A program made the translations under genes and the position numbers. This document shows, piece by piece, positions 5,285 to 63,785 of a DNA stretch of 64,000 nucleotides. The stretch's first letter is position 1; every line of letters starts with the position of its first letter. The stretch lies in the NCBI GenBank assembly GCA_965212005.1, contig OZ243038.1, positions 1,601,440 through 1,665,439 of the forward strand. Direction: 5' to 3'. The notes under the pieces were generated by a model. That model searched no databases. It worked only from the letters and a program-made list of their open reading frames with translations, and was not told the origin of the DNA. Source of the DNA: Candidatus Porifericomitaceae bacterium. Lineage in GTDB: Bacteria; Pseudomonadota; Gammaproteobacteria; Porifericomitales; Porifericomitaceae.

Positions 5285-6047
5285 ATGCAGGGGCTATTTT
5301 TTGTTCACGAAAAAATTCTAATAACTTCATTAATATAAACCACTCCATCCATTTGCCGTTAAAAAAAGCTTTAATTACGGGAGCTTTTTGTAGTGTGAGC
5401 CAAATAACTTTATCCTTCTTCTTATGGTCATATCTTGCGACGAATGAATAATCATAAAGCGCTTTGCAAAAGGATATTATTTGATTAATTTCTTTGGATT
5501 CTTTTGCTGCCAGTTCAATTTTGACATTGGTGTAACCTTTATTCTGTACATATTTTATTTGGTTACTCACATTACTGAGCACAGTAAAATTATTACCCAG
5601 CGACAGCGCTATTTCATCAAAAAAGCCGGTTGTATCCGCAGTATCCGGGTTGACATTAGTTTTGATATTGCGTTTTCCAAACCATTGCCGGATGGGCTCC
5701 AGGTTGTTAGTGTGCGTTAAAACATTTGTGTTGTGAATATCAGTTTCTTCAAATGAACTATTTTCAACAGGTTTATTAAGTTCCTTGCACAAGAGATAGG
5801 CTTCATGTATGGTGGAGAATAGCTTAACCCTTTCTATCTCGCCCTTGCCGAATTCGGCTTTTAACTCTCGTTGCCGAACGGGATTCCCACCGAAGCGAAA
5901 TCTTTTTGAGTTACCCGGGTTTTTCACTTTCCATACCCCCCAAGAACGCGGAGAAGTCCAGTTGGGGTTTCTGGGATCAACGCTTAGTGCAGACCAATCC
6001 AGTTCACTCATAGACAAAACCCAAGTTATGCGGCGTATAACGATCAA
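5247..6047 (-). CDS. hypothetical protein in low-GC islet (start probably the internal MSELDW...)
   Basis: 266-aa ORF on minus strand, AT-rich codon usage unlike the surrounding chromosome; no recognised domain. Confidence 0.45.
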   Translation of the reverse strand: MIVIRRITWVLSMSELDWSALSVDPRNPNWTSPRSWGVWKVKNPGNSKRFRFGGNPVRQRELKAEFGKGEIERVKLFSTIHEAYLLCKELNKPVENSSFEETDIHNTNVLTHTNNLEPIRQWFGKRNIKTNVNPDTADTTGFFDEIALSLGNNFTVLSNVSNQIKYVQNKGYTNVKIELAAKESKEINQIISFCKALYDYSFVARYDHKKKDKVIWLTLQKAPVIKAFFNGKWMEWFILMKLLEFFREQKIAPACARSMEIKFTNV

Positions 6048-6572: not shown

Positions 6573-7472
6573 TTATCCGGGCTCGGTATGCGGTTCGAGC
6601 TCGGCTTGCGGTGGGTCCTCTGCGGGCGCACCGGCAGGGGGGGTCGGTAACTCGATCTCTGCCGGGATCAGGGCGCTGCCTGTGCCCAGGTTGAATCGGT
6701 ATTGTATGCCCATGTCCGGACGAGCCAGGCTCAGATCGGGCGCGTTCGATCGCAAGGCGAATCGGATGCGCTCGGCCTCTCGATTTTCCAGCCATAGATC
6801 GGTGATCGCATCTGCGTCCTCGGGCAAGCGCTCAACCAACGATGCCCGGGCATTGATCCAGGCGCCGGCGGTGCGCAGTCCCTGCTCCGCGGAGATAGTC
6901 TCATCGCCTTGCTCCAGGTTCAGGCGCTGACCTTCGATCTCAATGAAGATCGGATGAAATCCAGCGGGCAGCAGACTGTGATCGGCAAAGAATAATTCTT
7001 GTCCTTGCAGCAGGGGCAGGGTGTGATCCTCGGCCAGGTAGACTTGTCCCTGATGCAGAAAGTAGCGCTGATAATTGAGCACGTTGACCAGGCCAAAGGC
7101 GATCTGATGCTGATCCAGCCAAATCTGAGCACGGGGGTGCTCGAGTCCGTAGACGGCCCAGTCTTTTTCTTCCGCCGGGACCGGAGTGGGTTCGGAATAG
7201 AGCAGATCATTCAGCATGCGCTCGATGCGGAAGCTGTCGGCGGGCAGATCCATCGGGCTGATCATGCGCCAGCTTTGTCCCTGCCGCTGGATTTCGATGG
7301 CAGCAATCCCAGGCCGATGAATGCGGATGCGCTGCATCGGGTGCTCGTCTGGTTTCAGCCAGGATTCAGTACGGCCCTGCTGATCCACGCGGCGCAGTGT
7401 CTCGATGATTAGCAGGGCCAGCCCTGCGAGCAACAACAGCAAGGCCCAGTTGGCCAGTTGGTACTTGCGCAT
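6573..7472 (-). CDS. DUF4340 domain protein (GldG-associated)
   Basis: 299 aa, N-terminal TM anchor, sits immediately downstream of the GldG-like gene as in conserved ABC-2/GldG operons. Confidence 0.65.
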   Translation of the reverse strand: MRKYQLANWALLLLLAGLALLIIETLRRVDQQGRTESWLKPDEHPMQRIRIHRPGIAAIEIQRQGQSWRMISPMDLPADSFRIERMLNDLLYSEPTPVPAEEKDWAVYGLEHPRAQIWLDQHQIAFGLVNVLNYQRYFLHQGQVYLAEDHTLPLLQGQELFFADHSLLPAGFHPIFIEIEGQRLNLEQGDETISAEQGLRTAGAWINARASLVERLPEDADAITDLWLENREAERIRFALRSNAPDLSLARPDMGIQYRFNLGTGSALIPAEIELPTPPAGAPAEDPPQAELEPHTEPG

Positions 7473-45345: not shown

Positions 45346-46200
45346 GCCGCGTGCGGCGGTCTCTCCTGCCCGCCCTCGTGCCGGGACCGGTGACGTTTAC
45401 TCTGATCGGTCGGTCCGCACCCCGGTCATGAAGGGGCAGCAGCGCGCCGGCGCTTGCGTCCTGTTGGCCGGGAGCCGGGGTCGCCGCATGGCTCCGATTG
45501 TCTATTTGGCGTTGGTTCGTTCCAGGTGCCGTTTCCACTGCGGGCTCTGTTGATCCGCGTGCGGCGGTCTCTCCTGCCCGCCCTCGTGCCGGGACCGGTG
45601 ACGTTTACTCTGATCGGTCGGTCTGCCCCCCGGTGATGAAGGGGCATCGGCGGTCCGTCGCATGAGCTCTGTTTGCCGGGAGCCGGGACCGCCGCATGGC
45701 TCCGCTTGTCTATTTGGCGTTGGTTCGTTTCCAGTGCCATTTCCACTGCGGACTCTGTCAATCCGCGTGCGGCGGTCTCTCCTGCCCGCCCTGGCGCAGG
45801 GTCCGGTGACGTTTACTCTGATCGGTCATTCCGCCCCCCGGTGATGAAGGGGCATCGGCGGTCCGTCGGCTTGCGCTCTGTTGGCCGGGGTCCGGGCACG
45901 CCGCATGGCTCCGCTTGTCTATTTGGCGTTGGTTCGTTCCAGGTGCCGTTTCCACTGCGGACTCTGTCGATCCGCGTGCGGCGGTCTCTCCTGCCAGCCC
46001 TGGCGCAGGGTCCGGTGACAGTTACTCTGATCGGTCGGTCCGCCCCCCGGTCATGAAGGGACAGCGGCGGTCCGTCGGCTTGCGCTCTGTTGGCCGGGAG
46101 CCGGGAATGCTGCCTGCATCCGCTTGTCTATTTAGCGTTGCCGCGTTTCAAGTGCCGTTTCCACTGCGGACTCCGTCGATCCGCGTGCTGCGGGGGTTGG
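45346..46200. repeat. tandem array of ~208-bp repeat, about 4.2 copies, noncoding
   Basis: Unit begins ccgcgtgcggcggtctctcctgcccgccct... at 45346, 45555, 45763, 45971 and (degenerate) 46181; copies ~90% identical; ORF-track fragments in several frames and both strands are repeat artefacts. Confidence 0.9.
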
Positions 46201-48667: not shown

Positions 48668-48868
48668 AAAGGTACGACTACCCAGTTCAATCGGTTATCG
48701 GGCACCGACCGCGTGTTCGAAGCAAGGGCTGCAGGATAAGATATTTTTATCTCTTTTTGAATGGCTGCCCAACAAGGGGAAGGTCACTTTAACGACCACA
48801 CGCTCCCATAGTCAACGTCGGAGTAGGTCATTGAGGCATGGATCATCAATCCTAGCATCCGGTGCCTA

Positions 48869-48885
48869 ATCATCCAGACTCGAAT
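48869..48885. repeat. 17-bp perfect direct repeat atcatccagactcgaat, copy 1 (partner 49996-50012), bracketing mrr
   Basis: Exact 17-mer found twice, 1127 bp apart, immediately downstream and ~160 bp upstream of mrr. Confidence 0.7.
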
Positions 48886-48890
48886 TTAGA

Positions 48891-49835
48891 TCAACTCTGG
48901 TCAAAGAAGTCTCCATCAATCGTTTTCACTTCATAGGTGTCGCGAACTTGCACACCGACGTTGTGCTTGTACATCAAATCGACCAATTTATCCCCGTCAA
49001 TGAGGATTATTGAGTAGGCCGCTTGACGCGCTTTTTTCAGTGCGTTATCACGAAAATCGGAAGTCGTGACAAAAATACCTTTGTTAGTGTCGCCGCTCAT
49101 TGCGCCAATAAAATCGCGAATGTCTTTTTCACTAACATTGGTGTCCTTATAGCGTTTTGCCTGTATGTAGATTTTCTCAAGGCCAAGTTCATCTGAGTTG
49201 ATTACCCCATCGATGCCGCCGTCCCAGGATTTTGGAGTTTCAATGAAATCTCCATAGCCCATTTTCTTCAGGAGTTGCAGGATAACGCTTTCAAAATAAG
49301 AAGGATCGGTTTTATGTAATTCTTCAAGAAGATCTCTTTTGGTTTGCTCTTCTATTGTAGACAGGCCAGCATCAATTAAATCCTGTGGGGATGCCTTTCC
49401 CAGATTTACTTCTTCCTGTGGGGATGCCTCTCCCAGATTTACTTCTTTTGGATCATTCACTTTGTCTGCTTTCTTTTTTGTTTTTCGGCTGGCAACGTGC
49501 GCCAAATAATCAGGATCATCTAATAAACTTTTGTATGTTATCCTTGTTGGCAAAGAAGATTTCCCTTTTTCTGTTATTTGTATCATCCCCCGTGAAGGAG
49601 AACTCAGAAAATTTGCCATCTTTAGATAAGATATGCCCCATCTGATGCGGTCATTCAATCTATTGGCACCGGAGCTTGTTATTTCTCTGAGTACGCTCTC
49701 TGGGAGTTCAGAATAATAGTTATCACGAACTTGAAGAATCAAATCGCGTGTACTCCATTCTTGCCTATCTTTCAGGGTTTTTTTCAGGGTTTTCAGGATA
49801 GGTGTATATGTTTGGTGGTGTTTGGGTAATTCCAT
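48891..49835 (-). CDS. mrr: Mrr-family restriction endonuclease (Mrr_N winged helix plus Mrr_cat)
   Basis: 314 aa; C-terminal SWDGGIDGVINSDELGLEKIYIQAKRY (D-(E)xK catalytic core of Mrr); low GC. Confidence 0.8.
   Translation of the reverse strand: MELPKHHQTYTPILKTLKKTLKDRQEWSTRDLILQVRDNYYSELPESVLREITSSGANRLNDRIRWGISYLKMANFLSSPSRGMIQITEKGKSSLPTRITYKSLLDDPDYLAHVASRKTKKKADKVNDPKEVNLGEASPQEEVNLGKASPQDLIDAGLSTIEEQTKRDLLEELHKTDPSYFESVILQLLKKMGYGDFIETPKSWDGGIDGVINSDELGLEKIYIQAKRYKDTNVSEKDIRDFIGAMSGDTNKGIFVTTSDFRDNALKKARQAAYSIILIDGDKLVDLMYKHNVGVQVRDTYEVKTIDGDFFDQS
49381..49446. repeat. in-frame 33-bp tandem duplication inside mrr linker
   Basis: cctgtggggatgcctttcccagatttacttctt x2 (1 mismatch) giving the duplicated peptide EVNLG(E/K)ASPQE. 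Confidence 0.85.
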
Positions 49836-49956
49836 GATAGTGGTCTCCAGTTAAGTTTTCTGGTGAGAAGGAATTTGGCTGACGCATTAGAAATGAGAAG
49901 TGGATCCCATTCTCAGGATAGCCTGGTAGCGATGTTAAGGTATAGCCGGTTCATAG

Positions 49957-50358
49957 TTATGCTGTCAAAGCAAGCCAAGCTTCCGCCGGTGTCTGATCAT
50001 CCAGACTCGAATGAGGCCGCTCCGCATTAGAATACATCATCCATACGTTGCTATCATCCCGTGGCCTCTCGAACCCTTTCCAGACATCGAAGTAACAAAC
50101 TCTCAAAATCTGCGCATTATCCATTGAAGCGAAATACGACTTGGTTGTCTTCAACAAAAAATATAATCGGCTTAGGGAAAAGCGTTCTGCCAATCTATGT
50201 GTCGCGGCGGCAATTGACACCGCACCCGCCCCACAAAATGGATCGAGCAGGCATCGGACGTCGGACGGAAACCACGGGAGGATGTATTGCGCAATGCGCC
50301 GTTTGCTTCCCCGATAGGGGAACGGGTGCGCGACATTAAGAGCGAAAACCATCGACAT
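49957..50358 (-). pseudogene. chimeric remnant: N-terminal fragment of a Dam-family N6-adenine DNA methyltransferase fused in frame to the tail of an IS3/rve-type transposase
   Basis: PFPYRGSKRRIAQYILPWFP...LLDPFCGAGAV (Dam motif I region) followed by ...VWMMYSNAERPHSSLDDQTPAEAW (integrase-core C-terminal signature). Confidence 0.5.
49996..50012. repeat. 17-bp direct repeat, copy 2
   Basis: See copy 1; lies within the transposase-tail coding remnant (encodes HSSLDDQ). Confidence 0.7.
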
Positions 50359-51040
50359 GATCCGAACTGCCGGCTCCCCTGTTGCGAGGACGTTTTATCG
50401 AAGACGAGAAACTGGACTTCTTATTTTTAATTGCCTTTACATGCTGAACATGAGCCCTGTTGTTTTTAATGTTAGCTCGCAGTCGGACTTTGCTGATTTT
50501 AGCGATGGTTTTCCTGATTTCCGTATTGGAAAGAATAGATTCGGTTTGAGACTTTATAAAACGTATAAGCCCGCCAGCATGGGTAACATTGCTTGGCATA
50601 TTTGTTTTGAAAGTGCTGTCGCCTACAAATACTACAACAGAAAATAATTTACTTTCGTGCATATTCAAACACGAAGATAATACTTTGATATGTTTGTAGT
50701 TCTGATGCAGAGGGTTTTGGAATGTGTATGTATGCTTGAATATCTTCTGAGTCCATTGTTTCTGACGAGCGGACCCAAAAATCCATCCTTTCATATTTTT
50801 TGTTTCGACCACAAAGATTCCATGTCTTGAAATAATGATGTGATCAATCTGGGTGCTCCCGTCCTCCGTTGGAAGCATTACATTCTTGAGTAGTTGATAT
50901 TTTTTTTTATCAAGCTGGAGCGAAAGTGCGACATTAACAATAAATTCACCCAATACCCCTTTGAACCAAGCAGTCTGTACAATCCCAATGATAATGAGAA
51001 AGAGAGAAGGTGCCAGTATGAGAAATGCTCCGATGCTCAT
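50336..51040 (-). CDS. NERD (nuclease-related domain) protein with N-terminal TM helix
   Basis: QIDHIIISRHGIFVVETKNMKGWIFG is the NERD core. Confidence 0.7.
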   Translation of the reverse strand: MSIGAFLILAPSLFLIIIGIVQTAWFKGVLGEFIVNVALSLQLDKKKYQLLKNVMLPTEDGSTQIDHIIISRHGIFVVETKNMKGWIFGSARQKQWTQKIFKHTYTFQNPLHQNYKHIKVLSSCLNMHESKLFSVVVFVGDSTFKTNMPSNVTHAGGLIRFIKSQTESILSNTEIRKTIAKISKVRLRANIKNNRAHVQHVKAIKNKKSSFSSSIKRPRNRGAGSSDHVDGFRS

Positions 51041-51071
51041 ATTAGTCGCATGAAAGCCCCATCGAGGGTGG

Positions 51072-51599
51072 CTAAGCGCTCATCTCCGTGAAGGTTGGCT
51101 CGTCGGCACCGCTCAATGCGACCTTCTTGGCAGGCTTGCTAGAGAGCTTTTTCAGTACATCTGCGAGCTCTGTTCTCGCACGTTGCAAGTTGATCTCATC
51201 CACAAAAGGTCGATCCACGCCCTCCTCGGCAGTGCTGATGTCCTTCTTCAACCTGGTCAAGGTCTTCCTTTGCTCCTGGCTGCTCTCGATGAGGCGTAAA
51301 TGCAAGCTGCGCAGGCAATTGTCCATCGACATCATTGCGCATCTCCAAGAGACGACGTGAATGTTTGCAGCAAGTCGCAATCCGTTGCCATGAGCTCCTT
51401 TCGGATGCCGACATTGGACGGGTCCTGCATGTATACAGATAGTTGCGCCCCCTTCTCTGCCAGGGTGCTTTGAGGCTCGGGATTCCCAGTCATGGGAGGG
51501 GAGCATAGCATCTGTGGGCAAGGAATCCAGGAATCCCGAGTAGTTCACTTGGCCCCTTGTCCAAATTTTTGGGTCTACTTCTGAAGTTGTGGTCGCCAC
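51072..51599 (-). CDS. hypothetical protein (possibly shorter, from internal MSMDN...)
   Basis: ORF only; C-terminal ~85 aa predicted helical/coiled coil; higher GC than its neighbours. Confidence 0.25.
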   Translation of the reverse strand: MATTTSEVDPKIWTRGQVNYSGFLDSLPTDAMLPSHDWESRASKHPGREGGATICIHAGPVQCRHPKGAHGNGLRLAANIHVVSWRCAMMSMDNCLRSLHLRLIESSQEQRKTLTRLKKDISTAEEGVDRPFVDEINLQRARTELADVLKKLSSKPAKKVALSGADEPTFTEMSA

Positions 51600-51746
51600 G
51601 TTTGAGCCTGCTGAATCATGCAGGCGAAATAGCGATAACCAGCATTTTCATTCGCCTTTTTAATCGCGTGTTACTTTGTAGCAATCACCTGCAAAGACTC
51701 AAAGTGATGCCTTTACAGACCGGACGTGAGTGCAAGGGGGCGCAGT

Positions 51747-52814
51747 TTACTGCGACCGAGTGCGTTGACTGGTCATATTTTTTACCAGGTTAAGTTGCCA
51801 GATTTTTTCCGCCCTGGCCCCCAGGTACCAGAAGCTCAGAGCCAGCAGTGCAAAAAATACAGCTTTATGGGTGCCATCCCAGAAATATTCGAAGAACCTT
51901 GTATAAAGATTGATGAAGATAAAGGTTAAACCAAAGCCTCGGGTCATTCCGTTATCAAATTTTACGCCGTGAAAGATGCTTATAATTGATGCCGCACCAA
52001 AAACGATCGACCAGTGGAACAATTCTATTTGTTTTACTCTTTCCCACGATTCCATATCACCATAATTCCCGAAAATAGAGATGATCCAAAGCGCAATAAA
52101 GAGATAGAGCAAACCAACGGCTCGTGTTGGTTTCAGGAATTCATTTCGACTCGGCCAATGATTAAAAACATATTCGCCAACGAAAATGAGGGCTGAACCA
52201 AACAGTACGAAACGCAACGGATAATTCATGCCGAGATAGTACGCTCCCCAGCCTGAAGCGTAACCCGTTTCAGCCCCAAACCAACTGCCTAAGGAGAGCA
52301 GGGAAAATAACCAGACCAGTTTAGACGGAAACCATAGTCCCAACAGGGCATAAATGATGGCCGCCAGCAGCAATAAAACAGAGAAATGGCCGGAACCGGT
52401 ATCTATTACTTTGCCCAAAAATACAATGGCTGTGGCGGTAGCGACAATGCCTAAAAAGAATATGGCTTCATTGCTGTAAATCTTCTCCGGAAATCTACCC
52501 TTTCTTTTAAAGCCAAGGAAATATAGAAAGCTCGCCAGCATGGCGAAACTCGCACACTTGACCCCATCAGGCACGTTAAACAATCGCTTAAATAGCTCAA
52601 CGAGCCATTCATCCGCCAGTGCGGATGCTATGGAAATAACGATGCAGGCAATGGCCAGCCAGAAGGAATATCTTGCCGTGCGCTTCCAGTCAAACGGCGT
52701 GACTTCATAGGAATGCTTAAGTTTCTGTGATTCCTGCCCGGAAATAATCCCGGCATCAAGCCAGTTCTGAATAGCCGTGCTCAGTATGCGCCCTTCTTTT
52801 TTTGAAACTTGCAT
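51747..52814 (-). CDS. DUF2157-like polytopic membrane protein
   Basis: 355 aa, ~10 TM helices, soluble N-terminal region; low GC. Confidence 0.55.
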   Translation of the reverse strand: MQVSKKEGRILSTAIQNWLDAGIISGQESQKLKHSYEVTPFDWKRTARYSFWLAIACIVISIASALADEWLVELFKRLFNVPDGVKCASFAMLASFLYFLGFKRKGRFPEKIYSNEAIFFLGIVATATAIVFLGKVIDTGSGHFSVLLLLAAIIYALLGLWFPSKLVWLFSLLSLGSWFGAETGYASGWGAYYLGMNYPLRFVLFGSALIFVGEYVFNHWPSRNEFLKPTRAVGLLYLFIALWIISIFGNYGDMESWERVKQIELFHWSIVFGAASIISIFHGVKFDNGMTRGFGLTFIFINLYTRFFEYFWDGTHKAVFFALLALSFWYLGARAEKIWQLNLVKNMTSQRTRSQ

Positions 52815-53000
52815 TCAGTTTTAATCCTTGTAAATCTAACGATTATACTCATCGTGGCGCAGGGGTTCCCCGGATTTTTGTTAAGTTTGCCTTTGTCCAT
52901 GCGTAACCCACAGAGTCTATTTCTAACGGACAGATCCTAATTTTTTAGCCCCTTTCAGAGGCAGCGGTCGTCACGCTGATATCGGGAAAATCGCCGACGA

Positions 53001-53112
53001 AATATGATACCCTAGGCGGATGCCCCAACTCGAATACATTGAAGCCCTAGAAAAACGGTTGTGGCCCGCCGCGGACACCTTGCGCGCGAACTCCAACTAC
53101 GACCGATTCTGA
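53001..53112 (+). pseudogene. duplicated 5' end of hsdM (30-codon remnant, [30 protein letters not shown]) plus its upstream 12 bp
   Basis: ~93% identical over ~100 bp to 55094-55198 (start of the intact hsdM); the pair flanks the darTG cassette. Confidence 0.65.
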
Positions 53113-53122
53113 AGATCAGACG

Positions 53123-53782
53123 GTGGAGGAACTAAAAACCTTGACGACACCGGTACCTGCTGATCCCAAAATCTATCATATTGTCCATGTAGATCGGTTG
53201 CCTTCAATTATTACTGAAGGTGGTCTTTGGTGTGATTCGGAGATTGCGCAACGCAAGCGACCGGGATCAGTCATCGGCATGAATAATATCAAACAGAGAC
53301 GGCTTAATCTACGCTTGAGTAGCCGCCCTGATTTATATGTTGGGAATTGCGTTCCCTTCTATTTTTGTCCTCGTTCTATCATGCTTTACATGATCCATAT
53401 AAAAAGCCCTGACTTGTCCTACACTGGTGGGCAAGAAACTATTGTCCATTTGGAGGCATACGTTAAAGAGTCTGTGTCATGGGCGGAACAGAATGAAACA
53501 CGTTGGGCTTTTACTTCGTCAAATGCTGGCGCATGTACCTTTGATGACTATTGTGACCTGGGTGAATTGAATAAAATTGATTGGACAGCCGTGCAGGCAA
53601 AACAATGGGTAGATCATAAGTACGGTAAACAGGCGGAATTTCTGTTGGAAAGTTACTTTCCATGGGAATTAATAAAACGTATTGGTGTATATTCAGAGTC
53701 AATCTATTGTCAAGCGGTCAAAGCATTTCTTGCCAATAGTCACCGTCCACAAGTAAAGATAATAAAAGCTTGGTATTATTAA
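53123..53782 (+). CDS. darT: DarT ssDNA thymidine ADP-ribosyltransferase toxin (DUF4433)
   Basis: IYHIVHVDRLPSIITEGGLWC N-terminal motif; catalytic QAEFLL motif; C-terminal ...WYY. Confidence 0.8.
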   Translation: MEELKTLTTPVPADPKIYHIVHVDRLPSIITEGGLWCDSEIAQRKRPGSVIGMNNIKQRRLNLRLSSRPDLYVGNCVPFYFCPRSIMLYMIHIKSPDLSYTGGQETIVHLEAYVKESVSWAEQNETRWAFTSSNAGACTFDDYCDLGELNKIDWTAVQAKQWVDHKYGKQAEFLLESYFPWELIKRIGVYSESIYCQAVKAFLANSHRPQVKIIKAWYY

Positions 53783-53798
53783 TAGAAGGGCGACAACG

Positions 53799-54860
53799 AT
53801 GATCGAATACAAGCGCGGTGATCTTCTGAAAGAAGATACCGAAGCGATTGTTAATACGGTGAATTGCGTCGGTGTTATGGGTCGAGGTATCGCGCTTCAA
53901 TTCAAAAAATACTTTCCGCAAAACTTCAAGGCATACGCGGCTGCCTGCAAGCATAAAAAAGTGCGGCCCGGGCGAATGTTCACCTTTGAGATCGGCGAGT
54001 TGACTAATCCCCAATACATCATCAATTTCCCGACCAAACGGCATTGGCGAGGAGCAAGCCGAATAGAGGATATCGAATCCGGCTTGCATGCGTTGGTCGA
54101 AGAAATCAGAAAGCACAAGATCCGATCTGTCGCCATTCCTCCGCTGGGCAGCGGTCTAGGTGGACTGGACTGGCAACAGATTCGCGCCCGAATAGATACA
54201 ATTCTTGGGGAAATCGATGAGGTTCAGATCATCGTCTATGAGCCGGAAGGCGCACCGGAAGCGGGCAGAATGGTGCGCAATCGCAAGGTTCCGAAAATGA
54301 CCTCGGGGAGAGCGGCACTCGTCAGTTTGATGCACCGTTACCTTGCTGGCCTGCTTGACCCGTTTGTGACATTGCTGGAAGTGCATAAACTGATGTACTT
54401 CCTGCAGATTGCGGGGGAACCATTAAAATTAAACTACGAAAAAGCCCTTTACGGCCCCTACGCCAAAGACCTTCGACATGTACTCAACCATATTGAGGGG
54501 CACTTGGTGTCCGGTTACGCAGATGGTGGCGATATGCCCAACAAGGAATTAAAACTGGTGCCGGGCGCACTGGAGGACGCGAACAAATTTCTCAGGAATA
54601 AAGCGAAAACCCGAGCGCGCCTTGAAAAAATTTCTGGCCTTGTTGAGGGATTTGAATCACCGTTTGGCCTGGAATTACTATCCACGGCTCACTGGATCAT
54701 AAACAACGAATCGCCTCAATCCATTGATGACGTTATTGACAAAACCTATGCCTGGAACGAGCGTAAGAAGCAGTTTTCACCGCGTCAAATTCGGTTGGCT
54801 TGCGATGTATTGGCAAAACAGGACTGGATAGAAGCCAGCTTAACCGGCCAACCCGAATAA
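53799..54860 (+). CDS. darG: DarG antitoxin (N-terminal macrodomain, C-terminal DarT-binding domain)
   Basis: Macrodomain signature AIVNTVNCVGVMGRGIALQF ... IPPLGSGLGG; 17-bp gap after darT. Confidence 0.8.
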   Translation: MIEYKRGDLLKEDTEAIVNTVNCVGVMGRGIALQFKKYFPQNFKAYAAACKHKKVRPGRMFTFEIGELTNPQYIINFPTKRHWRGASRIEDIESGLHALVEEIRKHKIRSVAIPPLGSGLGGLDWQQIRARIDTILGEIDEVQIIVYEPEGAPEAGRMVRNRKVPKMTSGRAALVSLMHRYLAGLLDPFVTLLEVHKLMYFLQIAGEPLKLNYEKALYGPYAKDLRHVLNHIEGHLVSGYADGGDMPNKELKLVPGALEDANKFLRNKAKTRARLEKISGLVEGFESPFGLELLSTAHWIINNESPQSIDDVIDKTYAWNERKKQFSPRQIRLACDVLAKQDWIEASLTGQPE

Positions 54861-55108
54861 AGTGTCAATGAGTTGCAGAGCATGCATTATTTATACGATC
54901 AAGTGTCGGCGCTGTTCTGGATGACTGGAAAACAAGCGGTTGCCGCACATTCAGGTCGAAGATGGACTGGGCCACACAACGTTATTCCGTTACCCCTACC
55001 CGATTGAAACCTTGCGGTTCGGATCCGTATCACTTTCCACCCCGGTGAGGAGCGTTTCGAGGTGTGCAATCCGGCGATGCAAACCTTAAAAATACGGTAC
55101 CCTAGGCG

Positions 55109-57218
55109 GATGCCCCAACTCGAACACATCGAAGCCATTGAAAAACGGTTGTGGACCGCCGCGGATACCCTGCGCGCGAACTCCAACTACGCCAGCAACG
55201 AGTATTTCCTGCCGGTCATGGGGCTGCTTTTCCTGCGCCATGCGTACAGCCGTTTCCTGGCTGTCAAAGTCGGGATTGAGAAGAATCTGCCCACCCGTGG
55301 CGGTAAACCCCGGGCGTTGATTAAGGAGGACTTCTCCCAACTAGGCGCGATTTTCCTCCGGCCCAAAGCGCAGTTTGCTCGTTTGGTGGCGTTGCCCGAT
55401 GGTAAAGATCGCGCCAAAGCCATCATTGAGGCGATGGAATTCATCGAGAAGGACTACAGCAACTTGCGCGGCATCCTGCCCAAGAAAGAATACCAGGACT
55501 TAAGCAACGACGTCCTCGGCCAGTTGCTGCGCACGCTCAACCCCGATGAGTTGAAAAAAGTATCGGGCGACGTCTTCGGTCGTATCTACGAATATTTTCT
55601 GGCCAAGTTTGCCGACCAGAAAGCCCACGACAATGGCGAATTCTTCACGCCCGTTTCACTGGTGTCACTGATCGCCCATGTGCTGGACCCCGAGGGCGGC
55701 ACGGTGCTCGATCCGGCCTGCGGTTCCGGCGGCATGTTCGTGCAGAGCGCGCGCATCGTCGAGGAGCACGGTCAAAACCCCATCGACCGGCTCACCTTCC
55801 GCGGCCTTGAGAAGAACGCCACCACCATTCGCCTCGCCAAGATGAACCTCGCCGTCCACGGCCTGGAGGGGAATATTCAGAAAGCCATCACCTACTACGA
55901 AGACCCGCACGATCTGCGCGGCAAAGCCGATTTCGTCATGGCCAATCCCCCGTTCAACGTGGACGAGATTGACGCGGACAAAGTCAAGACCGACCCGCGT
56001 CTGCCTTTCGGTCTGCCTGGCGTGAGCAAAAAGGACAAGGTCAGCAACGGCAACTACGTCTGGATCAGTTACTTCTACAGTTACCTGAGCGCCAAGGGAC
56101 GCGCCGGTTTTGTCATGTCCTCCCAGGCCTCCAGCGCCGGGGGCGGTGAAGCACAGGTGCGGCGGAAACTGGTGGAAAGCGGCGATGTGGACGTCATGAT
56201 CGCGATTCGCTCCAACTTCTTCTACACCCGCACCGTGCCCTGCGAATTGTGGTTCTTGAACCGCGCCAAGCCGAAGGAACATCGCGACAAGGTGCTGATG
56301 ATTGATGCGCGCAACGTCTACCGGAAGGTCACGCGCAAAATCTACGACTTCAGCCCGGAGCAGCAGCAGAACCTGCTGGCCATCGTTTGGCTTTATCGCG
56401 GCCAGACCGACAAATATCTCGGCCTTGTGTCCGGCTACTGCGCCAGAGTCATCGCGGAAAGCGCGGCCTGTTTTACCGCCGCGAATGAGGAAAGCGAATC
56501 AATCCAACCGCTGCCGGATTTCCTCGCCGCGCTCACCGCCCTGCACAATACGCTGGAACCGTTTCTCAAGACCCTTAACCCCAAAGATGCTCATGCCGAA
56601 ACACACAAGGAACTGATGGATGCCCTTCCCGCCTTTGAAGCGGACGTGGGGGCCTTCCGCAAAGCGGTTGCCAAACAGCAGACGGCATGGGCAAAACAAA
56701 AAACCAATAACGGCGCACTCAAAAAAGCGGTAGCTCGACTTGCGCCACTGGCTGAATCAAGCCGCGACCTGGTCAAACAGACCGATCTGCTCTACAAACT
56801 CGCTTCGCGCCTTGTCGAAACCTGCGAACAGTCCGCCAAGACCAACGGCACCCGGATCGACAAGGAAGTTGCCCGCGCCCGCAAAGCCGCTGATGAGTCC
56901 AGACGGCAAGCCGTGGAACAACTCAAACAGGTGCACTACTTTTGGCGGCAAGCGCACTGGCTCACCAAGCGTTTCCCCGACGCCGAACTGCGCGACGTGG
57001 AAGGGCTGGTCAAACTGGTTGACCGCAAAGAGATTGAAGCAAACGACTGGAGCCTGACCCCCGGCCGCTACGTCGGCGTTGCGCCGGAAGAAGAAGACGA
57101 GAACTTTGATTTTGAGGAAACGATGCGGGACCTCCACACCGAGTTGAAAGCACTCAACGCCGAAGCAGCCACGCTGGCGGCGGCCATTGATAAGAATTTT
57201 AAGGAAATGGGGATATGA
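55109..57218 (+). CDS. hsdM: type I restriction-modification system DNA methyltransferase subunit M
   Basis: HsdM_N motif [15 protein letters not shown]; SAM motif [10 protein letters not shown]; catalytic NPPF (VMANPPFNV); C-terminal [11 protein letters not shown]. Confidence 0.9.
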
Positions 57219-57740
57219 GCGGCGATAGAAAAATCGTCATCATCGCCGGCCCCAACGGTGCGGGTAAAACGACGTTCGCACGGGAATTCCTGCCCAAAGA
57301 ATCCGGCTGTTTGATTTTTATCAACGCCGACCTGATCGCAGGTGGCCTGTCTCCCTTTCAACCGGAAGCCGCCGCCATCCGTGCCGGGCGGCCTGATGCT
57401 GCAACAAATTGACAACTACGTAAAAAAGGGTGAAAGTTTTGCCTTTGAAACAACGCTTGCGAGTCTTGGGTACGTAAAAAAGATAAAAAAGTGGCGTGCA
57501 GTAGACTATAAGGTCAAACTGATTTTTTTGTCGCTTGCAACGCCCGAAGAGGCGACTAACCGAGTAAAATCACGTGTGGCGCAGGGTGGACACCCTATTC
57601 CAGAAGCCATAATACGCCGCCGATTTTCCAACGGCTTGAATAATTTTGAAAACATCTATCGCCACTGTGTGGATTATTGGCAACTCATCAATAACAGCAG
57701 TGCCATCCCGATCCTGATTGAGAAAGGAGAAAACCCATGA
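57215..57740 (+). pseudogene. zeta-toxin-like / AAA ATPase gene, split by a single-base frameshift near 57395
   Basis: ORF 57215-57412 ([19 protein letters not shown]...NADLIA...AAIRAGR) and ORF 57342-57740 (...[24 protein letters not shown]...) are contiguous in homologues; an extra C in the run gggcggcc shifts the frame; ATG overlaps hsdM stop. Confidence 0.6.
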
Positions 57741-57956: not shown

Positions 57957-58415
57957 ATGAGCAAAGCGCCGCCATACACGATCACCCCGCACATTCTCAC
58001 CCGCATTGAGCAAATCGGTGAAGCGATTGGCCGTGCGGAGGCGGCGGGCGTTTCACAGGATATGCGCTTGCGGCACATCAATCGCATCCGCACGATTCAC
58101 GGTACGCTTGCCATGGCGGGCAATGCCCTCAGCGTGGAACAAGTCGCCGCAATTTTCGATACAATGCATACCCCCCAAGAAGCCCCCCAAGTAACCTCCC
58201 AAGTAGAACGCTTGCTGTCGGTGCTTAAAGGTAAAGGGGAAATGTCACGGCAGGAAATCCAGCAGGCGATTGGGTTGAAAGACCGCAAGTCATTGCGGGA
58301 GCGGTATCTGTTGCCTGCATTACAAGGCGGATATATTGAAATGACGCAACCTGATACGCCTAATGCCAGGAATCAGAAGTATCGGCTTAGTTCGCGTGGG
58401 AGGGGGATGCGGTGA
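57957..58415 (+). CDS. Fic-family protein remnant: N-terminal helices and C-terminal winged helix retained, catalytic HPFx(D/E)GNGR core deleted in frame
   Basis: N-terminus ITPHILTRIEQIGEAIG...HGTLAMAGNALS and C-terminus LKDRKSLRERYLLPALQGGYIEMTQPDTPNARNQKYRL match RM-associated Fic proteins, but the total is only 152 aa. Confidence 0.5.
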   Translation: MSKAPPYTITPHILTRIEQIGEAIGRAEAAGVSQDMRLRHINRIRTIHGTLAMAGNALSVEQVAAIFDTMHTPQEAPQVTSQVERLLSVLKGKGEMSRQEIQQAIGLKDRKSLRERYLLPALQGGYIEMTQPDTPNARNQKYRLSSRGRGMR

Positions 58416-58437: not shown

Positions 58438-59646
58438 ATGAGAAGTTCACCCCTAACATCTCTTGCGGATATTGCTGAATCAGTTCAATACGGATACACC
58501 GCATCAGCATCCGATGCAGAAATAGGCCCAAAATTTCTACGCATCACAGATATCGTTCCTTCTCAAATTAACTGGGACACTGTTCCCTATTGCGAGATAG
58601 ATGAAACAACATTCGCAAGATTTTCCCTTGCGCCGAATGACATCGTCATAGCTCGTACAGGTGCAACTGTCGGATATGCCAAACTGATTCGAGACAATAA
58701 ACAATCCGTTTTTGCATCATATCTTGTTAGAGTTAGAGTTGATCCTGATAAGGCGGAGCCTGGCTACGTTGGGCTGATTGTTGAATCGAACGTTTACAAA
58801 CGTTTCGTTCGTTCACGTGTAGGGGGTGCAGCCCAACCTAATGCAAACGCAAAAGTTCTGTCGTCCTTTAAGTTCACTCTTCCTGAAAGATCAGTTCAGA
58901 TTCGGATTACTGCTATCTTATCTGCCTACGATGACCTGATCGAAAACAACCGACGACGAATTCAGTTACTGGAACAGTCAGCACGACTACTCTACAAAGA
59001 GTGGTTCGTCCACCTCCGCTTCCCCGGCCACGAACACACCACCATCACCGACGGCGTACCGGAGGGGTGGGAGCGGAAGAGTTACTCTGATTTGTTTAGA
59101 TTTCTCGGGGGATTCGCATTCAAAAGTGAAACTTATCAGATAGAAGGGAAGTTTGGGATTGTCACCATCAAAAATGTTCACGATGCGCGATTCATCACTG
59201 AGTGCCAATCAAGGCTTGATGATATACCAGAGAAAATGAAAGAACATTGCTCTCTTAACGCTGGGGATATCTTGTTGTCCCTAACCGGCAATGTTGGACG
59301 AGCATGTATTGTATTTGGCAATAATTATCTACTGAATCAGCGTGTAGCCAAAGTGGTTGGCAATAGTGGTATTTCTCGAAGCTTCACGTACTGGACATTT
59401 AGCAATGAAACGATCCAGAAAGAGCTGGAAAATCTCGCGTACGGTGTCGCGCAATTAAATCTTAGTCCAGTCAAACTGGGAAAAATAGAGTTCTTGAAAC
59501 CTTCGAGAAAGTTATTGGAGTTATTTGAAAAAATGACTGCCCCAATATTTCAGCAAATTATCACACTTAATTTGCAAATAGATCAAACTACCCAAGCACG
59601 CGACCTACTCCTGCCACGCCTTTTGAATGGGGTGGTCTCCGTATGA
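58438..59646 (+). CDS. hsdS: type I restriction-modification system specificity subunit S
   Basis: 402 aa; two target-recognition domains separated by the conserved central helix (LIENNRRRIQLLEQSARLLYKEWFVHLRFPGHE) and a C-terminal conserved helix. Confidence 0.85.
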   Translation: MRSSPLTSLADIAESVQYGYTASASDAEIGPKFLRITDIVPSQINWDTVPYCEIDETTFARFSLAPNDIVIARTGATVGYAKLIRDNKQSVFASYLVRVRVDPDKAEPGYVGLIVESNVYKRFVRSRVGGAAQPNANAKVLSSFKFTLPERSVQIRITAILSAYDDLIENNRRRIQLLEQSARLLYKEWFVHLRFPGHEHTTITDGVPEGWERKSYSDLFRFLGGFAFKSETYQIEGKFGIVTIKNVHDARFITECQSRLDDIPEKMKEHCSLNAGDILLSLTGNVGRACIVFGNNYLLNQRVAKVVGNSGISRSFTYWTFSNETIQKELENLAYGVAQLNLSPVKLGKIEFLKPSRKLLELFEKMTAPIFQQIITLNLQIDQTTQARDLLLPRLLNGVVSV

Positions 59647-59745
59647 TGCTTGTAGAATTAACCAACTTTATCGCTCTTGGTGAAAAAGTAATACCGTTTC
59701 TATGCGGAGGAACGGACTTTGTTCTAAAAGAGTAGCTGTTTGATT

Positions 59746-61533
59746 ATGCGCCCGATCCACTGGTTACATCTTTCCGACCTTCACATGAGAGAGCGAGACT
59801 CGTGGTCTCAGGATATAGTTCTCAAGGCAATGCATGATCATATTTATAAGGATTTTTCTGAAGGTATTAAAGCAGACTTTATTCTCGTGACGGGAGATCT
59901 TACTTTTTCCGGTAGGGCTACTGAATACCGCTTGGTGGAGGAGTTTTTCGATGCACTCAGCATAGCATCAAGAGTCACGAAGGAATCTATATACTGTATT
60001 CCCGGAAATCACGATATTGATCGCGATCGTAATAAACTATGTTTTGAGGGTGCTCGTAAAGTTCTGCAAAACATGAGCGCGGTTGATAGTCTTCTCGAAG
60101 GGCAAGATGATTTGGAGACGCTGGCCACACGACAGGAAAACTACCGAAGATTTCAAGAGGCATATTTTTCAGAACAGAAGAGAATTGGTACAGAAGATCA
60201 GCTTGGATACGTTTCAAGAATCACACTTGACGACGTGCACATAGCGATTGTTGGACTGAATTCAGCTTGGTTGGCAGAAGGCGGCCTAGCTGATCATGGA
60301 AAACTCCTAATCGGTGAACGACAGGTAATCAATGCTATTAACTTAATCAAGAAACACGATCAACGTCCTCACATAATTATTGGCATGGCTCATCATCCTC
60401 TTCATCTTCTCTGTGAGTTTGATCGTAGGCCAGTCCAAAATCGTATTGAAGAATTTTGCCACTTTTTTCACTTTGGACATTTACATCAGTCCGAAACTCG
60501 CACATCAGGATTCAGTGGCTCCGGTTGCCTGACACTTGGTGCCGGTGCATCGTTTGAGACGCGCCAGTCTCACAATAGCTATTCTGTCGTTACACTCGAT
60601 TTATTGCAGGCACTTCGGACAGTTATGACTATCAAGTTTGATCCGAACAATAGTATGTTCTCGTCTACTGCTTCCGAAGAATATCGCATTGAAGTGAACC
60701 CGCAAGATATCTATGGTGTGGACGAACTTGCAGGGACCATGAAAGGTTATTGCACTTCACTTGGTCAATGGCCTCATTATCTATCGGCTCTGTTATTGGG
60801 TCAGAAGTCGGAAGTACTCATTTGCACATCAGACGATTATGCATTTGGATCGCTTGCCGTTTCTCAGGCGCCTCCTGTTAGTGATTTACAGGAAAAAACA
60901 AACAGCTTCATGGCGTTTAAAAATGTACTATGTGTATTGCACAAGGACATTCCCCTTGCAGATATCTTTACCCGTTATGGCGATATGGTTCGTGAATATG
61001 GAGTCGTTTTAGAGCAGATAAGCAATGCACAACCGAACATCAAGGCTCGTTTGCTGGAATATGAAGATGATGCGAGAAAACTGGTGAATGCTAATCGCCT
61101 CGAATTTTTCTCTTACACCTTCTCTCTTCTTGACAATCTAGCTTACACGAAAGATTGGGGGCTCTTACGTGAGCAGGCACAACGCCATATTAGTTCATAT
61201 AATTCAAAATTAGCCGCCCATGCAAAACGAATGTTAGCTCTTAGCTTGGCTAATTCATATGAAGAAGAAGACAAAAATAACGCGATCAAACTTTATCAGT
61301 CGCTGATTGAAAGTGGCGTTGTAGAATTCACTGATGTGGGCAATTTTTCTACACTTCTTATGAATGTTGGAAGGTTAGAAGAAGCCAAAACCGTTACACT
61401 TCGTGGTATTGAACAGTTTCCTGTAGAACATATAAGGTACTTCACTGATATAGGACGCAAAATTGTTGAAGAATCAGGAGATCGTGTGTTTCGCGATGCA
61501 TTGGAGACAATTATCAAAGAGAAAAAATTATGA
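59746..61533 (+). CDS. calcineurin-like metallophosphoesterase with ~270-aa alpha-helical (TPR-like) C-terminal extension
   Basis: Motifs LSDLH (D-x-H), GDLT (GD), GNHD, GHLH; low GC; 100 bp after hsdS. Confidence 0.7.
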   Translation: MRPIHWLHLSDLHMRERDSWSQDIVLKAMHDHIYKDFSEGIKADFILVTGDLTFSGRATEYRLVEEFFDALSIASRVTKESIYCIPGNHDIDRDRNKLCFEGARKVLQNMSAVDSLLEGQDDLETLATRQENYRRFQEAYFSEQKRIGTEDQLGYVSRITLDDVHIAIVGLNSAWLAEGGLADHGKLLIGERQVINAINLIKKHDQRPHIIIGMAHHPLHLLCEFDRRPVQNRIEEFCHFFHFGHLHQSETRTSGFSGSGCLTLGAGASFETRQSHNSYSVVTLDLLQALRTVMTIKFDPNNSMFSSTASEEYRIEVNPQDIYGVDELAGTMKGYCTSLGQWPHYLSALLLGQKSEVLICTSDDYAFGSLAVSQAPPVSDLQEKTNSFMAFKNVLCVLHKDIPLADIFTRYGDMVREYGVVLEQISNAQPNIKARLLEYEDDARKLVNANRLEFFSYTFSLLDNLAYTKDWGLLREQAQRHISSYNSKLAAHAKRMLALSLANSYEEEDKNNAIKLYQSLIESGVVEFTDVGNFSTLLMNVGRLEEAKTVTLRGIEQFPVEHIRYFTDIGRKIVEESGDRVFRDALETIIKEKKL

Positions 61534-63785
61534 CTGAAAAATCCTCATCGTTCCCGATGGGTGTCGAATTCCAAAGCATACTGAGCGCAATTTCCAAGCA
61601 GATATATGAGACACCTTTTGCTTTTATCCGAGAAAATGCCCAGAACGCAGTGGATGCTATTCGTATTCAAGCATACCGAGAAGGACTTGAACCGCGAGAC
61701 GAGCGTTACAGAATTGATGTTACCGCAAGCGATCGGAAAATCATTGTAAGTGATAACGGTATAGGTATGTCGGAGAGCGAACTAAAGAGCTTTTTCTGGA
61801 CGATCGGAGCTAGTGGAAAAAGGACAGAAGAAGCATTTTCTGCAGGTTGCGTTGGTATCTTTGGAATCGGAGGCTTCGCCAACCTCGGTGTTTGTGACAG
61901 ACTAGATGTGATTTCCCGAACAGAAGAGGCTACACATGGAATACGGACGTGGATTTCAGCATCAGACATAAAGGAAGCAGGTTCTACAATCCCTTCTGTG
62001 AGCAGCGAATCCTCTGACACAGTAACGGATAGAGGTACAATTGTAACTGGTCATTTGCGGGAGGTGGTAAATATTGACGAACTCCGCCGCTATTTAGAAA
62101 GTTTCGTACGCTTCACGCCGATTTCGATTTATTTCAATAATCGAAAGTTATCACAGGTTGAATTTTCGAATATCGAGGATAGTGAAAATCTAACCAAGAT
62201 AAAAAATATTGACCAACAATGGGGTGAAGGAAATATTCTAATAACGGGAAAGTTCTACGAGGACAGGGGGCATGCGCTTGTAGCGATGATTAATAATATT
62301 AGTATCAATGGGGAAATTGTCAATTTTATTGGCCAGATCAGATTCGAGAATGGACCGATAGATGTGTTCAAACACGGCTTCAAGCTTTGTGCGACAAAGA
62401 TAGGTAGTGCTATTGGTATATCGGGGCGCATAGATTGTGATCGTTTTTCTCCCACAGCAGGTCGTGATTCGCTGGATGCATCTACAACTAGCCTTTTGAG
62501 TCAGGCCGTTCTAGTACTACAAAAAATCGCAGTTGAGATAGTCCTACAAACACCTGAACGGATCGCTCAGCACACTCGCATATTTAGTTACATCATCAGA
62601 AATGGACTTTTGAGTAAACTTGATAATGTAAAAGTTAATCTCGCAGATGGATCAGAATTGTCCCTTGGCGATATCCGCAGAAAATCAGAAGGAGGCGTTG
62701 GTGTATTTTTTGGGTTCGCGAAAAAAGAGGGCCTGAATCAAATTATGCAGGCACGAGGTCATCTTGTTGTACTTCTATCCTCCGACCGTAACCGCCAGAA
62801 CGCAGAACGCCAGTATCTTGAGCAATACTGCTCTGCGAAACCATTCGATGGAATAGTTGATTGTGCTGAAGATTATGAAAATTTAAGTCGATTTGAGCAG
62901 ATTGTACTCAGCGAATTGGAGCTCAACATCACCACATCGTACGAGATAAAAACCGATCACTTCCGCCTTATTCCAGGAAAGTTGACTGAAGACATACCCG
63001 TTTTTATTAAAGAGGTCAGCGGTAGCCAGAAAATAGACATCTTTGTCGATGTTCGTCACTCAGAAATTGCTAAATTGGAAACTCTTGGGTTTACACAGAT
63101 TCTATACTCGTTGATTGCTACTTTCTGTCGCGAGTACCTCGGCTCGTCCCTCAAAAAATGGAGTCCGCGCTTCTTTGGAGATGGTGCTCTTAATCTTGAG
63201 CTTCTGGCCAAACACCGATCAGAACTTTGGGTATTGGTCAAGGATGATATTGGGGTTGTTCATAGAGGGGGGGAACGGGAAGTTGTAAGACACTCAGATG
63301 TACAGGTCGTTAACGTAAGCGACAGGCAGAACCCGGCAAAGCAATCTTCAGACGAAGAATGCCCACGCATTCTCCACATAATTGATGAGAAAGATACGGT
63401 GAAAATTTCTGGTTACTATATACGACTTCGAGATTCTGCTTTTAAGGCCCACGGTGACCTGATAGTTGGATATGAGAGTCTCGGTGTAGTCTGGGCTGGG
63501 AACAAAGTACTATACGTGGCATCCGACACTTTCAGTGCTACATTTCAATATGAAATCCGTCTAGATAGATTAGTAACTGTTGATTGCGACGGTGAGCTAC
63601 GAGCGGAGGGCGCGATACAACTTGATAAATCCTTGCAACAAATGTTCAATGGTCTGTATTTCTCAATACCTGATTCTTTAGTACCATTTCTTGTGCCTCA
63701 AGGTAATGAAGAAATACGTTTGGAGTTACTCACTGAGTGGTACGACATAAACACCGCTAGACGCTGGACTCCCAAAGAAACATAA
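61530..63785 (+). CDS. Hsp90/HtpG-like GHKL (Bergerat-fold) ATPase, 751 aa
   Basis: N box ENAQNAVDAIR (cf. Hsp90 ELISNASDALDKIR); G1 box IVSDNGIGMSESEL (cf. IVDTGIGMTKADL); TIGASGKR (cf. TIAKSGTK); G2 GIFGIGGFANL; start overlaps the phosphoesterase stop (ATGA). Confidence 0.7.
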   Translation: MTEKSSSFPMGVEFQSILSAISKQIYETPFAFIRENAQNAVDAIRIQAYREGLEPRDERYRIDVTASDRKIIVSDNGIGMSESELKSFFWTIGASGKRTEEAFSAGCVGIFGIGGFANLGVCDRLDVISRTEEATHGIRTWISASDIKEAGSTIPSVSSESSDTVTDRGTIVTGHLREVVNIDELRRYLESFVRFTPISIYFNNRKLSQVEFSNIEDSENLTKIKNIDQQWGEGNILITGKFYEDRGHALVAMINNISINGEIVNFIGQIRFENGPIDVFKHGFKLCATKIGSAIGISGRIDCDRFSPTAGRDSLDASTTSLLSQAVLVLQKIAVEIVLQTPERIAQHTRIFSYIIRNGLLSKLDNVKVNLADGSELSLGDIRRKSEGGVGVFFGFAKKEGLNQIMQARGHLVVLLSSDRNRQNAERQYLEQYCSAKPFDGIVDCAEDYENLSRFEQIVLSELELNITTSYEIKTDHFRLIPGKLTEDIPVFIKEVSGSQKIDIFVDVRHSEIAKLETLGFTQILYSLIATFCREYLGSSLKKWSPRFFGDGALNLELLAKHRSELWVLVKDDIGVVHRGGEREVVRHSDVQVVNVSDRQNPAKQSSDEECPRILHIIDEKDTVKISGYYIRLRDSAFKAHGDLIVGYESLGVVWAGNKVLYVASDTFSATFQYEIRLDRLVTVDCDGELRAEGAIQLDKSLQQMFNGLYFSIPDSLVPFLVPQGNEEIRLELLTEWYDINTARRWTPKET

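Follow-up and report, generated by a model that had tools for sequence, protein, structure and literature searches.

How did an intact toxin-antitoxin pair come to lie between two copies of the start of a single restriction-modification (R-M) methylase gene? The question is raised by a 64,000-nucleotide (nt) stretch of contig OZ243038.1 of a Candidatus Porifericomitaceae bacterium (hereafter the window, to which all coordinates refer unless another locus is named), in which darT and darG precede the hsdM gene of a type I R-M operon and follow a fragment of a second hsdM start (Table 1). The arrangement is best explained by illegitimate recombination that carried a DarTG2 module from one type I R-M family into another and left a scar, an explanation to which a probability of about 0.7 is assigned.

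The flanks of darTG carry a direct repeat of 102 nt (53000-53101 and 55090-55191; 91% identity, spacing 2,090 nt), which was recovered at E = 3e-37 when the DNA upstream of darT was compared with that downstream of darG by blastn. Other direct repeats within the 10 kb around it reached at most 23 nt, and the 102-nt repeat is far above chance level. An earlier note on this DNA had reported a duplication of the first 30 hsdM codons and had proposed to align the two copies. They do align, with a core of 94 nt at 92.6% identity, and the duplication is real; the figure of 30 codons, however, is the length of the open reading frame (ORF) at 53020-53112, of which 27 codons are hsdM. The upstream copy, termed H', comprises about 13-20 nt before the ATG at 53020 and hsdM codons 1-27. 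Its similarity to hsdM ends at 53101/53102, and its frame then passes through three non-hsdM codons to a TGA at 53110-53112. The downstream copy, H, opens the intact hsdM, as the note had also stated, and darT and darG between the copies are intact as well.

Judged by their identities, H' and H derive from one hsdM lineage, namely the resident one. Over 96 nt, H' matched the hsdM starts of the two sister strains, represented by loci L129 and L135, at 88 and 86 positions, respectively. The core of H' was 93.6% identical to the hsdM start of L129 and 92.6% identical to that of the window itself, while the best of 28 other members of the hsdM family reached at most 83%. Upstream of the ATG, H' was matched by the resident hsdM lineage only. 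The first 27 residues of HsdM are almost invariant among 119 family proteins, and H' would encode Y6 (0/119 relatives), L10 (1/119) and P16 (0/119). Thus, H' has drifted as dead DNA. Its origin as a foreign allele was considered in view of its 9/96 differences from H, as against 2-3% between strains, and was rejected because its amino-acid changes fall on near-invariant positions, which points to neutral drift. The earlier note would have given up its reading if the upstream fragment had belonged to a separate, decayed hsdM gene unrelated to the acquisition of darTG. The fragment is decayed, yet the point where it breaks off is the joint to the darTG segment, which ties the break to the acquisition. 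As a control, 48 loci of the same HsdM family that lack darTG were inspected, and none contained a second copy of the hsdM 5' end.

What follows H' is not hsdM DNA but the end of an hsdS gene. The closest DarG relatives examined (75-76% identity), L131-L133, have the order hsdM (657 aa, another family)...hsdS-darT-darG-hsdR; a fourth close relative, L134, has darT-darG-hsdR without a recognisable hsdM or hsdS. DNA homology between the window and L131/L132 begins at 53101, inside the 3' ends of their hsdS genes, and stops at the darG stop codon. The window tail TDSEDQTVEELKT aligned with the HsdS tails of L131 and L132, which read ...TDSEDETMEELEH and ...TDPEEDTTEELEH, respectively (...LTDSEDETMEELEH and ...LTDPEEDTTEELEH being excerpts of the same tails), up to their stop codons. 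In L131 and L132, the hsdS stop overlaps the TTG start of darT, and a GGAGG motif lies inside the hsdS tail. The window retains both the GGAGG Shine-Dalgarno sequence (53125-53129) and the TTG at 53141, which is probably the start of darT as placed by homology to L131 (LTTPVPAKPKIYH). Since a 1-nt indel in the window fuses the hsdS-tail frame with darT, the ORF finder places the darT start at GTG 53123 instead.

Acidic hsdS tails of this kind adjoin darT in many loci of the DarTG clade of the window. Among 30 sampled HsdS proteins of the resident family, which is characterized by a 702-aa HsdM, none had an acidic tail; they ended in ...LLPRLMNGE-type or other non-acidic sequences. Therefore, the hsdM stub is joined to a foreign hsdS stub. 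At the joint, ...AACTACG of hsdM abuts ACCGATTCTGAAG... of hsdS out of frame and with at most 1 nt (G) of microhomology, i.e., two unrelated sequences meet abruptly with the 0 to few nt of microhomology that mark an illegitimate scar. The stop of the stub ORF lies 29 nt before the darT start. The DNA upstream of H' is unrelated to that upstream of H, and together with the foreign hsdS joint this identifies an illegitimate joint rather than a target-site duplication; the corresponding empty site of the sister strains lacks 52894-54975 altogether. On the other side of the insert, the intact hsdM of the same lineage is consistent with a homologous anchor.

The module itself is, by its domains and gene order, an ordinary DarTG2. 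DarT matched PF14487 at 2e-55 (model positions 1-201 of 201), the PADLOC DarT profile at 5e-63 and the structure 7OMV at 3.6e-30, with KQAEFLL of the window, in which the catalytic glutamate is probably retained, opposite KQAAFLV of a chain that we take to be an E-to-A mutant at this position. DarG matched the PADLOC DarG profile at 5e-136 (residues 1-341 on model positions 1-328 of 329) and the Macro domain PF01661 at 6e-26; its macrodomain matched 5M3I and 5M31 at 2e-50, and its C-terminal domain (residues 167-336) matched 7YK3_B. Compared with the solved DarT (7OMV series), DarG (5M3I, 5M31) and DarT-DarG complex (7YK3), the pair differs by ordinary sequence divergence. Both genes lie on the same strand, with darT upstream of darG and a gap of 16 nt (53782 to 53799). 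Since the antitoxin is a macrodomain protein and not a NADAR protein, the pair is DarTG2. In this family, DarT ADP-ribosylates thymidines of single-stranded DNA, and DarG reverses the modification and sequesters DarT, which provides defence by abortive infection.

The DNA between the copies had been described as exactly darT-darG. This did not hold, since it also includes the hsdS stub, a 101-nt spacer after darG and, behind the spacer, a GmrSD_N (DUF262) gene reduced to two stubs. The first of these (ATG 54962 / 54972-55010) corresponds to gene positions 5-44, and the second (55017-55081) to positions 316-380. Intact homologues encoding 598-aa GmrSD_N proteins occur in the canonical DarTG operons L066, L088, L112 and L127 (PF03235 at 2e-31), and the first stub was identical to the 5' end of the L066 gene at 23/24 nt. 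The leader of the intact hsdM, termed B, is thus a GmrSD_N pseudogene. The 113-nt leader before H', termed B', aligned with it no better than shuffled sequences did. B' is probably the original leader or promoter region of the broken hsdM. An 18-codon ORF in the spacer (54868-54924; MSCRACIIYTIKCRRCSG) contains two CxxC pairs and may be due to chance.

From these elements, the following course of events can be proposed. First, the module would have left a slot of the type hsdS-darT-darG-hsdR, in which the final codons of hsdS contain the ribosome-binding site of darT. Second, a segment that starts 39 nt before the hsdS end and carries darT and darG was attached at codon 27/28 of a resident-lineage hsdM. 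That lineage belongs to another type I family, whose HsdM measures 702 aa, and its intact hsdM follows the insert. Third, the right-hand joint would have been made through hsdM homology, for which three candidate routes can be envisaged: replacement by one illegitimate plus one homologous event (homology-facilitated illegitimate recombination), Campbell-type integration of a circle carrying approximately 100 nt of the hsdM 5' end, or duplicative insertion. The Campbell-type route is admissible because leader B is a GmrSD_N pseudogene and B' a candidate native leader. Since the joining, the 27-codon stub has drifted, and the GmrSD_N gene has decayed to two stubs. The hsdS sliver was probably kept because of the darT translation signals that it carries. 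Of the proposals in the earlier note, the insertion or exchange scar is accordingly tied to the acquisition of darTG at the hsdM 5' end, but a simple local duplication at the promoter region does not account for it, B' being unrelated to B. Recombination between hsdM alleles is plausible for the right joint, but the left joint is illegitimate and leads into a foreign hsdS tail.

The earlier note had suggested that the arrangement may place darTG under the R-M promoter, and darTG is indeed now positioned behind an hsdM-type start region. Its transcription probably proceeds from the leader B' of the broken hsdM. Since no terminator was predicted between darG and hsdM and the plus strand of the spacer contained no terminator-like site, hsdM may be co-transcribed with darTG, and a transcript covering the stub, darTG and hsdM is plausible.

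Comparison with related strains bears on the polarity of these events. The sister strains were found via HsdM: protein P0001, with 97% identity, pointed to L129, and P0361, from the same cluster, to L135. Both have the order DUF2157-like gene, hsdM, zeta/Fic remnants and hsdS, without darTG. The flanks of L129 were 97.9%, 97.6% and 96.9% identical to the window, with 97.6% for the left flank (51558-52893). The intergenic DNA beside the DUF2157-like gene, termed A, was identical or near-identical in L129 and L135 up to ...GTTAAGTTTGCCTT, and both strains pass from window position 52893 straight to 54976. This junction is blunt, with 'GCC' 2 nt away on both sides. A further search for strains via the 355-aa neighbour gene returned only L129 above 81% identity. 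The search for an empty site proposed in the earlier note thus yielded alleles free of darTG, but these are not an hsdM minus its upstream copy: they lack a 2,082-nt block that includes B' and excludes most of the GmrSD_N stubs, and that differs from the interval between the repeats.

The breakpoint at 54975/54976 is straddled by a GmrSD_N stub. In the window, this stub extends to gene position 5 with an in-frame ATG, whereas the empty alleles reach only about position 9; left of the breakpoint, the window has CCAC and the in-frame ATG where the empty alleles have a flank-derived TT. It is most likely, from these few bases, that the empty allele arose by later deletion and that the block-bearing allele is older. 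L129 and L135 would then have lost 52894-54975 in a single 2,082-nt deletion.

The opposite polarity is the strongest competitor, albeit an improbable one. Here, the empty site would be ancestral, and a pre-formed 2,082-nt block consisting of B', the hsdM stub, the hsdS stub, darTG and the spacer would have been inserted 134 nt upstream of hsdM. The identical empty junction in two of the three strains, the clean indel free of any target duplication and the lack of relatedness between B' and the resident leader speak for such an insertion. It would require two coincidences, however, since an hsdM stub of the same lineage would have landed beside that very hsdM by chance, and the end bases of the block (CCAC and the upstream in-frame ATG) would by chance complete the 5' end of the GmrSD_N stub. 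Moreover, the two empty strains amount to one observation. For 750 nt to the right of the junction, L129 and L135 form one haplotype (22 window-only sites versus 2 and 3), so effectively two junction haplotypes exist, and no polarity follows from the distribution among strains. The argument that the empty junction must be ancestral because L135 as an 'outgroup' has it was rejected on account of the mosaic sites and this common haplotype.

The scar might also have formed in place, by internal collapse of a tandem upstream hsdM-hsdS-darT-darG operon through one deletion from hsdM codon 28 to hsdS codon -13. A stub-to-stub fusion does resemble a simple deletion, and canonical hsdM...hsdS-darTG operons are common. 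The acidic hsdS tail pairs with other HsdM families, though, and occurred in 0/30 sampled HsdS proteins of the 702-aa family, in which darTG was found in 0/48 loci. A collapsed canonical operon was therefore dropped as the main model on account of the tail type, and is considered somewhat less probable still than the insertion of a pre-formed block. Finally, a discrete darTG cassette moved by a transposase or site-specific recombinase, with the approximately 100-nt repeat as target-site duplication or attachment (att) site, is suggested by the direct repeats flanking the cargo and by similar flanking repeats in L091 and L051, but is largely refuted and very improbable, since no recombinase or transposase gene lies inside or beside the block, the repeats vary in both size (38, 102 and 179 nt) and target gene (two hsdM families and rhuM), the left 'cassette' end falls in the coding tail of hsdS, the empty alleles do not match excision between the repeats, and the two junctions have no identical core sequence in common.

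Several observations weigh against a transfer between R-M families followed by deletion in the sister strains. No locus showed B' directly ahead of an intact hsdM, which is the allele predicted for the state before insertion. The age order of the alleles depends on only 2-4 discriminating nucleotides and the in-frame ATG, while the empty junction is present in two strains and the block in one, and the flanks are too mosaic for a tree. Among the 135 fetched loci and in the rest of the window, nothing matched B' or the spacer. A donor in which GmrSD_N comes after darTG was not found, and GmrSD_N lay upstream of hsdS in all four loci with the intact gene. A scan for promoters and terminators, which was deemed uninformative, revealed no sigma-70 consensus on the plus strand of B', A or the spacer.

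Of more than 552 metagenome matches to DarTG2, 80 were analysed. Among 61 DarTG loci from metagenomes that were testable for flanking repeats, direct repeats bracketed darTG in four independent cases, two of them being gene-start stubs. A tblastx comparison of the up- and down-flanks of 60 DarTG loci added nothing to the cases found by blastn, its matches being mostly noise from high-GC, low-complexity sequence. Locus L091 has the order hsdR-hsdS-AAA_13-DUF4357-rhuM stub-darT-darG-rhuM-hsdM, with an intact rhuM after darG and a stub of 179 nt at 83% identity. L086, which is 90-92% identical to L091, reads hsdR-hsdS-darT-darG-(rhuM as three stubs)-hsdM. From this pair it follows that the L091 stub represents the ruptured end of an adjacent module that was attached immediately in front of darT. 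The rhuM remnants of L086 (6790-7060 of that locus) lie between darG and hsdM and stem from the gene start, from 105 nt of its interior and from its 3' end. In L051, the DNA attached in front of darT is a native hsdS-hsdM junction, at which the stop codon of an HsdS C-terminus overlaps the ATG of an hsdM stub of 13 codons, and an intact hsdM follows darG.

Other loci showed further variations. In L094, a 55-nt non-coding repeat (2285-2339 / 5805-5857; 94.5%) brackets darTG together with a brnT toxin gene, and in L104 a 48-nt non-coding, promoter-like repeat (346-393 / 2726-2773) brackets darTG. L134 contains, at 7200-7340, a 1201-aa family-less protein and a short acidic reading (...EEIKAAEEAES, then a stop) running into darT, which may be another hsdS-tail stub left after the loss of hsdM and hsdS. 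In L082 (4716-7172), darT-darG is followed by an inverted second darT on the opposite strand, which is 51% identical to the DarT of the window.

That DarTG2 can reside within type I R-M loci has been described before. In the RRDM island of enteropathogenic Escherichia coli (EPEC) E2348/69, the genes are ordered RptR-HsdM-HsdS-DarT2-DarG2-HsdR-M48, darTG2 was present in 12/54 rptR-linked type I systems, and the hsdS-hsdR slot was called a likely recombination hotspot for defence cargo (PMC12255303). The island and the window are alike in that DarTG2 is embedded in a type I R-M operon and apparently shares its transcription. They differ in that darTG of the window stands ahead of hsdM and not in the hsdS-hsdR slot, that the fused stubs of an hsdM and an hsdS come before it, and that its hsdS-derived flank stems from a type I family other than that of the operon it heads. 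A first gene resembling rptR was not seen in the window, although no search was aimed at one. With the canonical operons (L131-L133; L049-L128), the window has in common a DarG of 64-76% identity, DNA of approximately 70-74% identity from the hsdS tail to the darG stop, and the same darT Shine-Dalgarno sequence and TTG start overlapping the hsdS end. Those operons are intact and coherent, whereas in the window the cognate hsdM, hsdS and hsdR are missing except for the final 13 codons of hsdS. Thus, novelty is limited to the placement of darTG in front of hsdM and to the readability of the scar.

Homology-facilitated illegitimate recombination, a process attributed to de Vries and Wackernagel (2002), reportedly makes one joint by homology and the other by end-joining with 0 to few nt of microhomology, and is said to insert foreign DNA next to a homologous anchor. 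The blunt joint between hsdM and hsdS in the window and the intact homologous hsdM resemble such products, as do L091/L086 and L051; the case of the window differs in being deduced from sequence only. Integrase att sites offer a second likeness. Integrated elements regenerate the ends of tRNA genes or ORFs, which gives partial gene duplications, and here too a gene fragment lies on one side of the insert and an intact copy on the other. Unlike such att-site duplications, the window has no integrase, identical crossover core or defined cassette ends, and the target varies between cases.

If read correctly, the locus would provide a base-resolved joint at which a DarTG module that left the hsdS-hsdR slot with an hsdS sliver bearing its ribosome-binding site entered another R-M family at the start of its methylase gene. 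It would be concrete evidence that defence islands are rebuilt by module-level illegitimate and homologous recombination between related operons and not by dedicated mobile-element machinery, and the scar would account for gene-start fragments piling up beside toxin-antitoxin cargo. Similar stubs, of rhuM and hsdM, flank darTG in two unrelated lineages. It is conceivable, if doubtful, that stub-flanked DarTG marks a general recombinase-free route by which defence cargo is moved or retained in type I loci. In one version, the module may be released as a circle through the repeat of approximately 100 nt, which derives from a conserved backbone-gene start, and may insert again by Campbell-type integration at any related hsdM or rhuM start. 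In another, addiction may kill recombinants in which a clean double crossover replaces hsdS or cargo and removes darTG, so that only illegitimate joints upstream of darT survive and leave stubs. Were such a route real, DarTG would be an active shaper of R-M operon evolution and not a passenger.

Table 1. Features of the DarTG block and its surroundings in the window.
Feature	Coordinates	Strand	Basis or remark
DUF2157-like gene, 355 aa, divergent	51747-52814	-	adjoins intergenic DNA A
A, intergenic DNA beside the DUF2157-like gene	52815-52893	.	common to sister strains up to the indel breakpoint
Indel block, 2,082 nt, present in the window, absent from L129 and L135	52894-54975	+	blastn and alignments
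B', 113-nt leader before the hsdM stub	52894-53006	+	no similarity to the intact hsdM leader
H', dead hsdM stub, ribosome-binding site region and codons 1-27	53007-53101	+	87/96 identical to the intact hsdM start
hsdS stub (foreign), last 13 codons, TDSEDQTVEELKT	53102-53140	+	DNA homology to L131 and L132
darT (DarT2 single-stranded DNA ADP-ribosyltransferase)	53141-53782	+	PF14487, PADLOC, PDB 7OMV
darG (macrodomain ADP-ribosyl hydrolase antitoxin, C-terminal DarT-binding domain)	53799-54860	+	PADLOC DarG, PF01661
Spacer after darG, 101 nt	54861-54961	+	no match in fetched loci
GmrSD_N (DUF262) pseudogene, two stubs	54962-55081	+	tblastn/blastn to 598-aa GmrSD_N proteins
H, downstream repeat copy, ribosome-binding site region and first 27 codons of intact hsdM	55090-55191	+	repeat alignment, blastn
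Intact hsdM, 702 aa, resident type I R-M operon	55110-57218	+	PF02384, HsdM_N, PADLOC MTase_I

The product of the intact hsdM matched PF02384 at 1.5e-75, HsdM_N, and PADLOC MTase_I at 4e-259. Downstream of it follow a frameshifted zeta-toxin gene, a Fic-like_C ORF, hsdS (58438-59646) and cargo genes. Both hsdM and hsdS of the resident operon are intact; hsdR falls outside the window, which ends at 64000, and is present downstream in L129. An Rfam scan of 51500-56000 returned no matches. Host-like DNA of about 60% guanine-cytosine (GC) content, with ThiF, a tandem array of four 209-nt units and PrmC, stops near 47.6 kb, from where a defence island of lower GC content extends to the end of the window. 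Its order is Mrr, Dam fragment, NERD, DUF2157-like gene, DarTG block, hsdM, zeta, Fic-like_C, hsdS, metallophosphoesterase and HATPase_c_3.

The zeta-toxin-like gene is split by the frameshift into a 65-aa P-loop ORF (57215-57412) and a 132-aa ORF (57342-57740), which are followed by a 62-aa ORF and by an ORF with only the C-terminal Fic-like domain (57957-58415). These zeta/Fic remnants are kept in L129 and L135, and partial homologues lie after hsdM in L001 and L023. Homology between the strains extends only as far as about 59079, within hsdS, which means that they also differ by a swap of the second target-recognition domain. The cargo after hsdS differs in the three near-isogenic strains: the window (59079-63785) has a metallophosphoesterase (PDC-S60-like) and a HATPase_c_3 protein, L129 (14024-19350) BrxR/WYL, a CBASS set (SMODS, HORMA, AAA) and PIN, and L135 (8400-13900) Hachiman (HamA and helicase). 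In the left part of the island, Mrr (48891-49835), the Dam fragment (49957-50358) and NERD (50336-51040) lie within a part (48757-51557) that has no counterpart in L129, where GmrSD_N and DruA fragments form another mosaic block in its place. The tandem array between ThiF and PrmC (45347-46193; 209-nt unit, 4.1 copies, 89% match) is present in L129, too.

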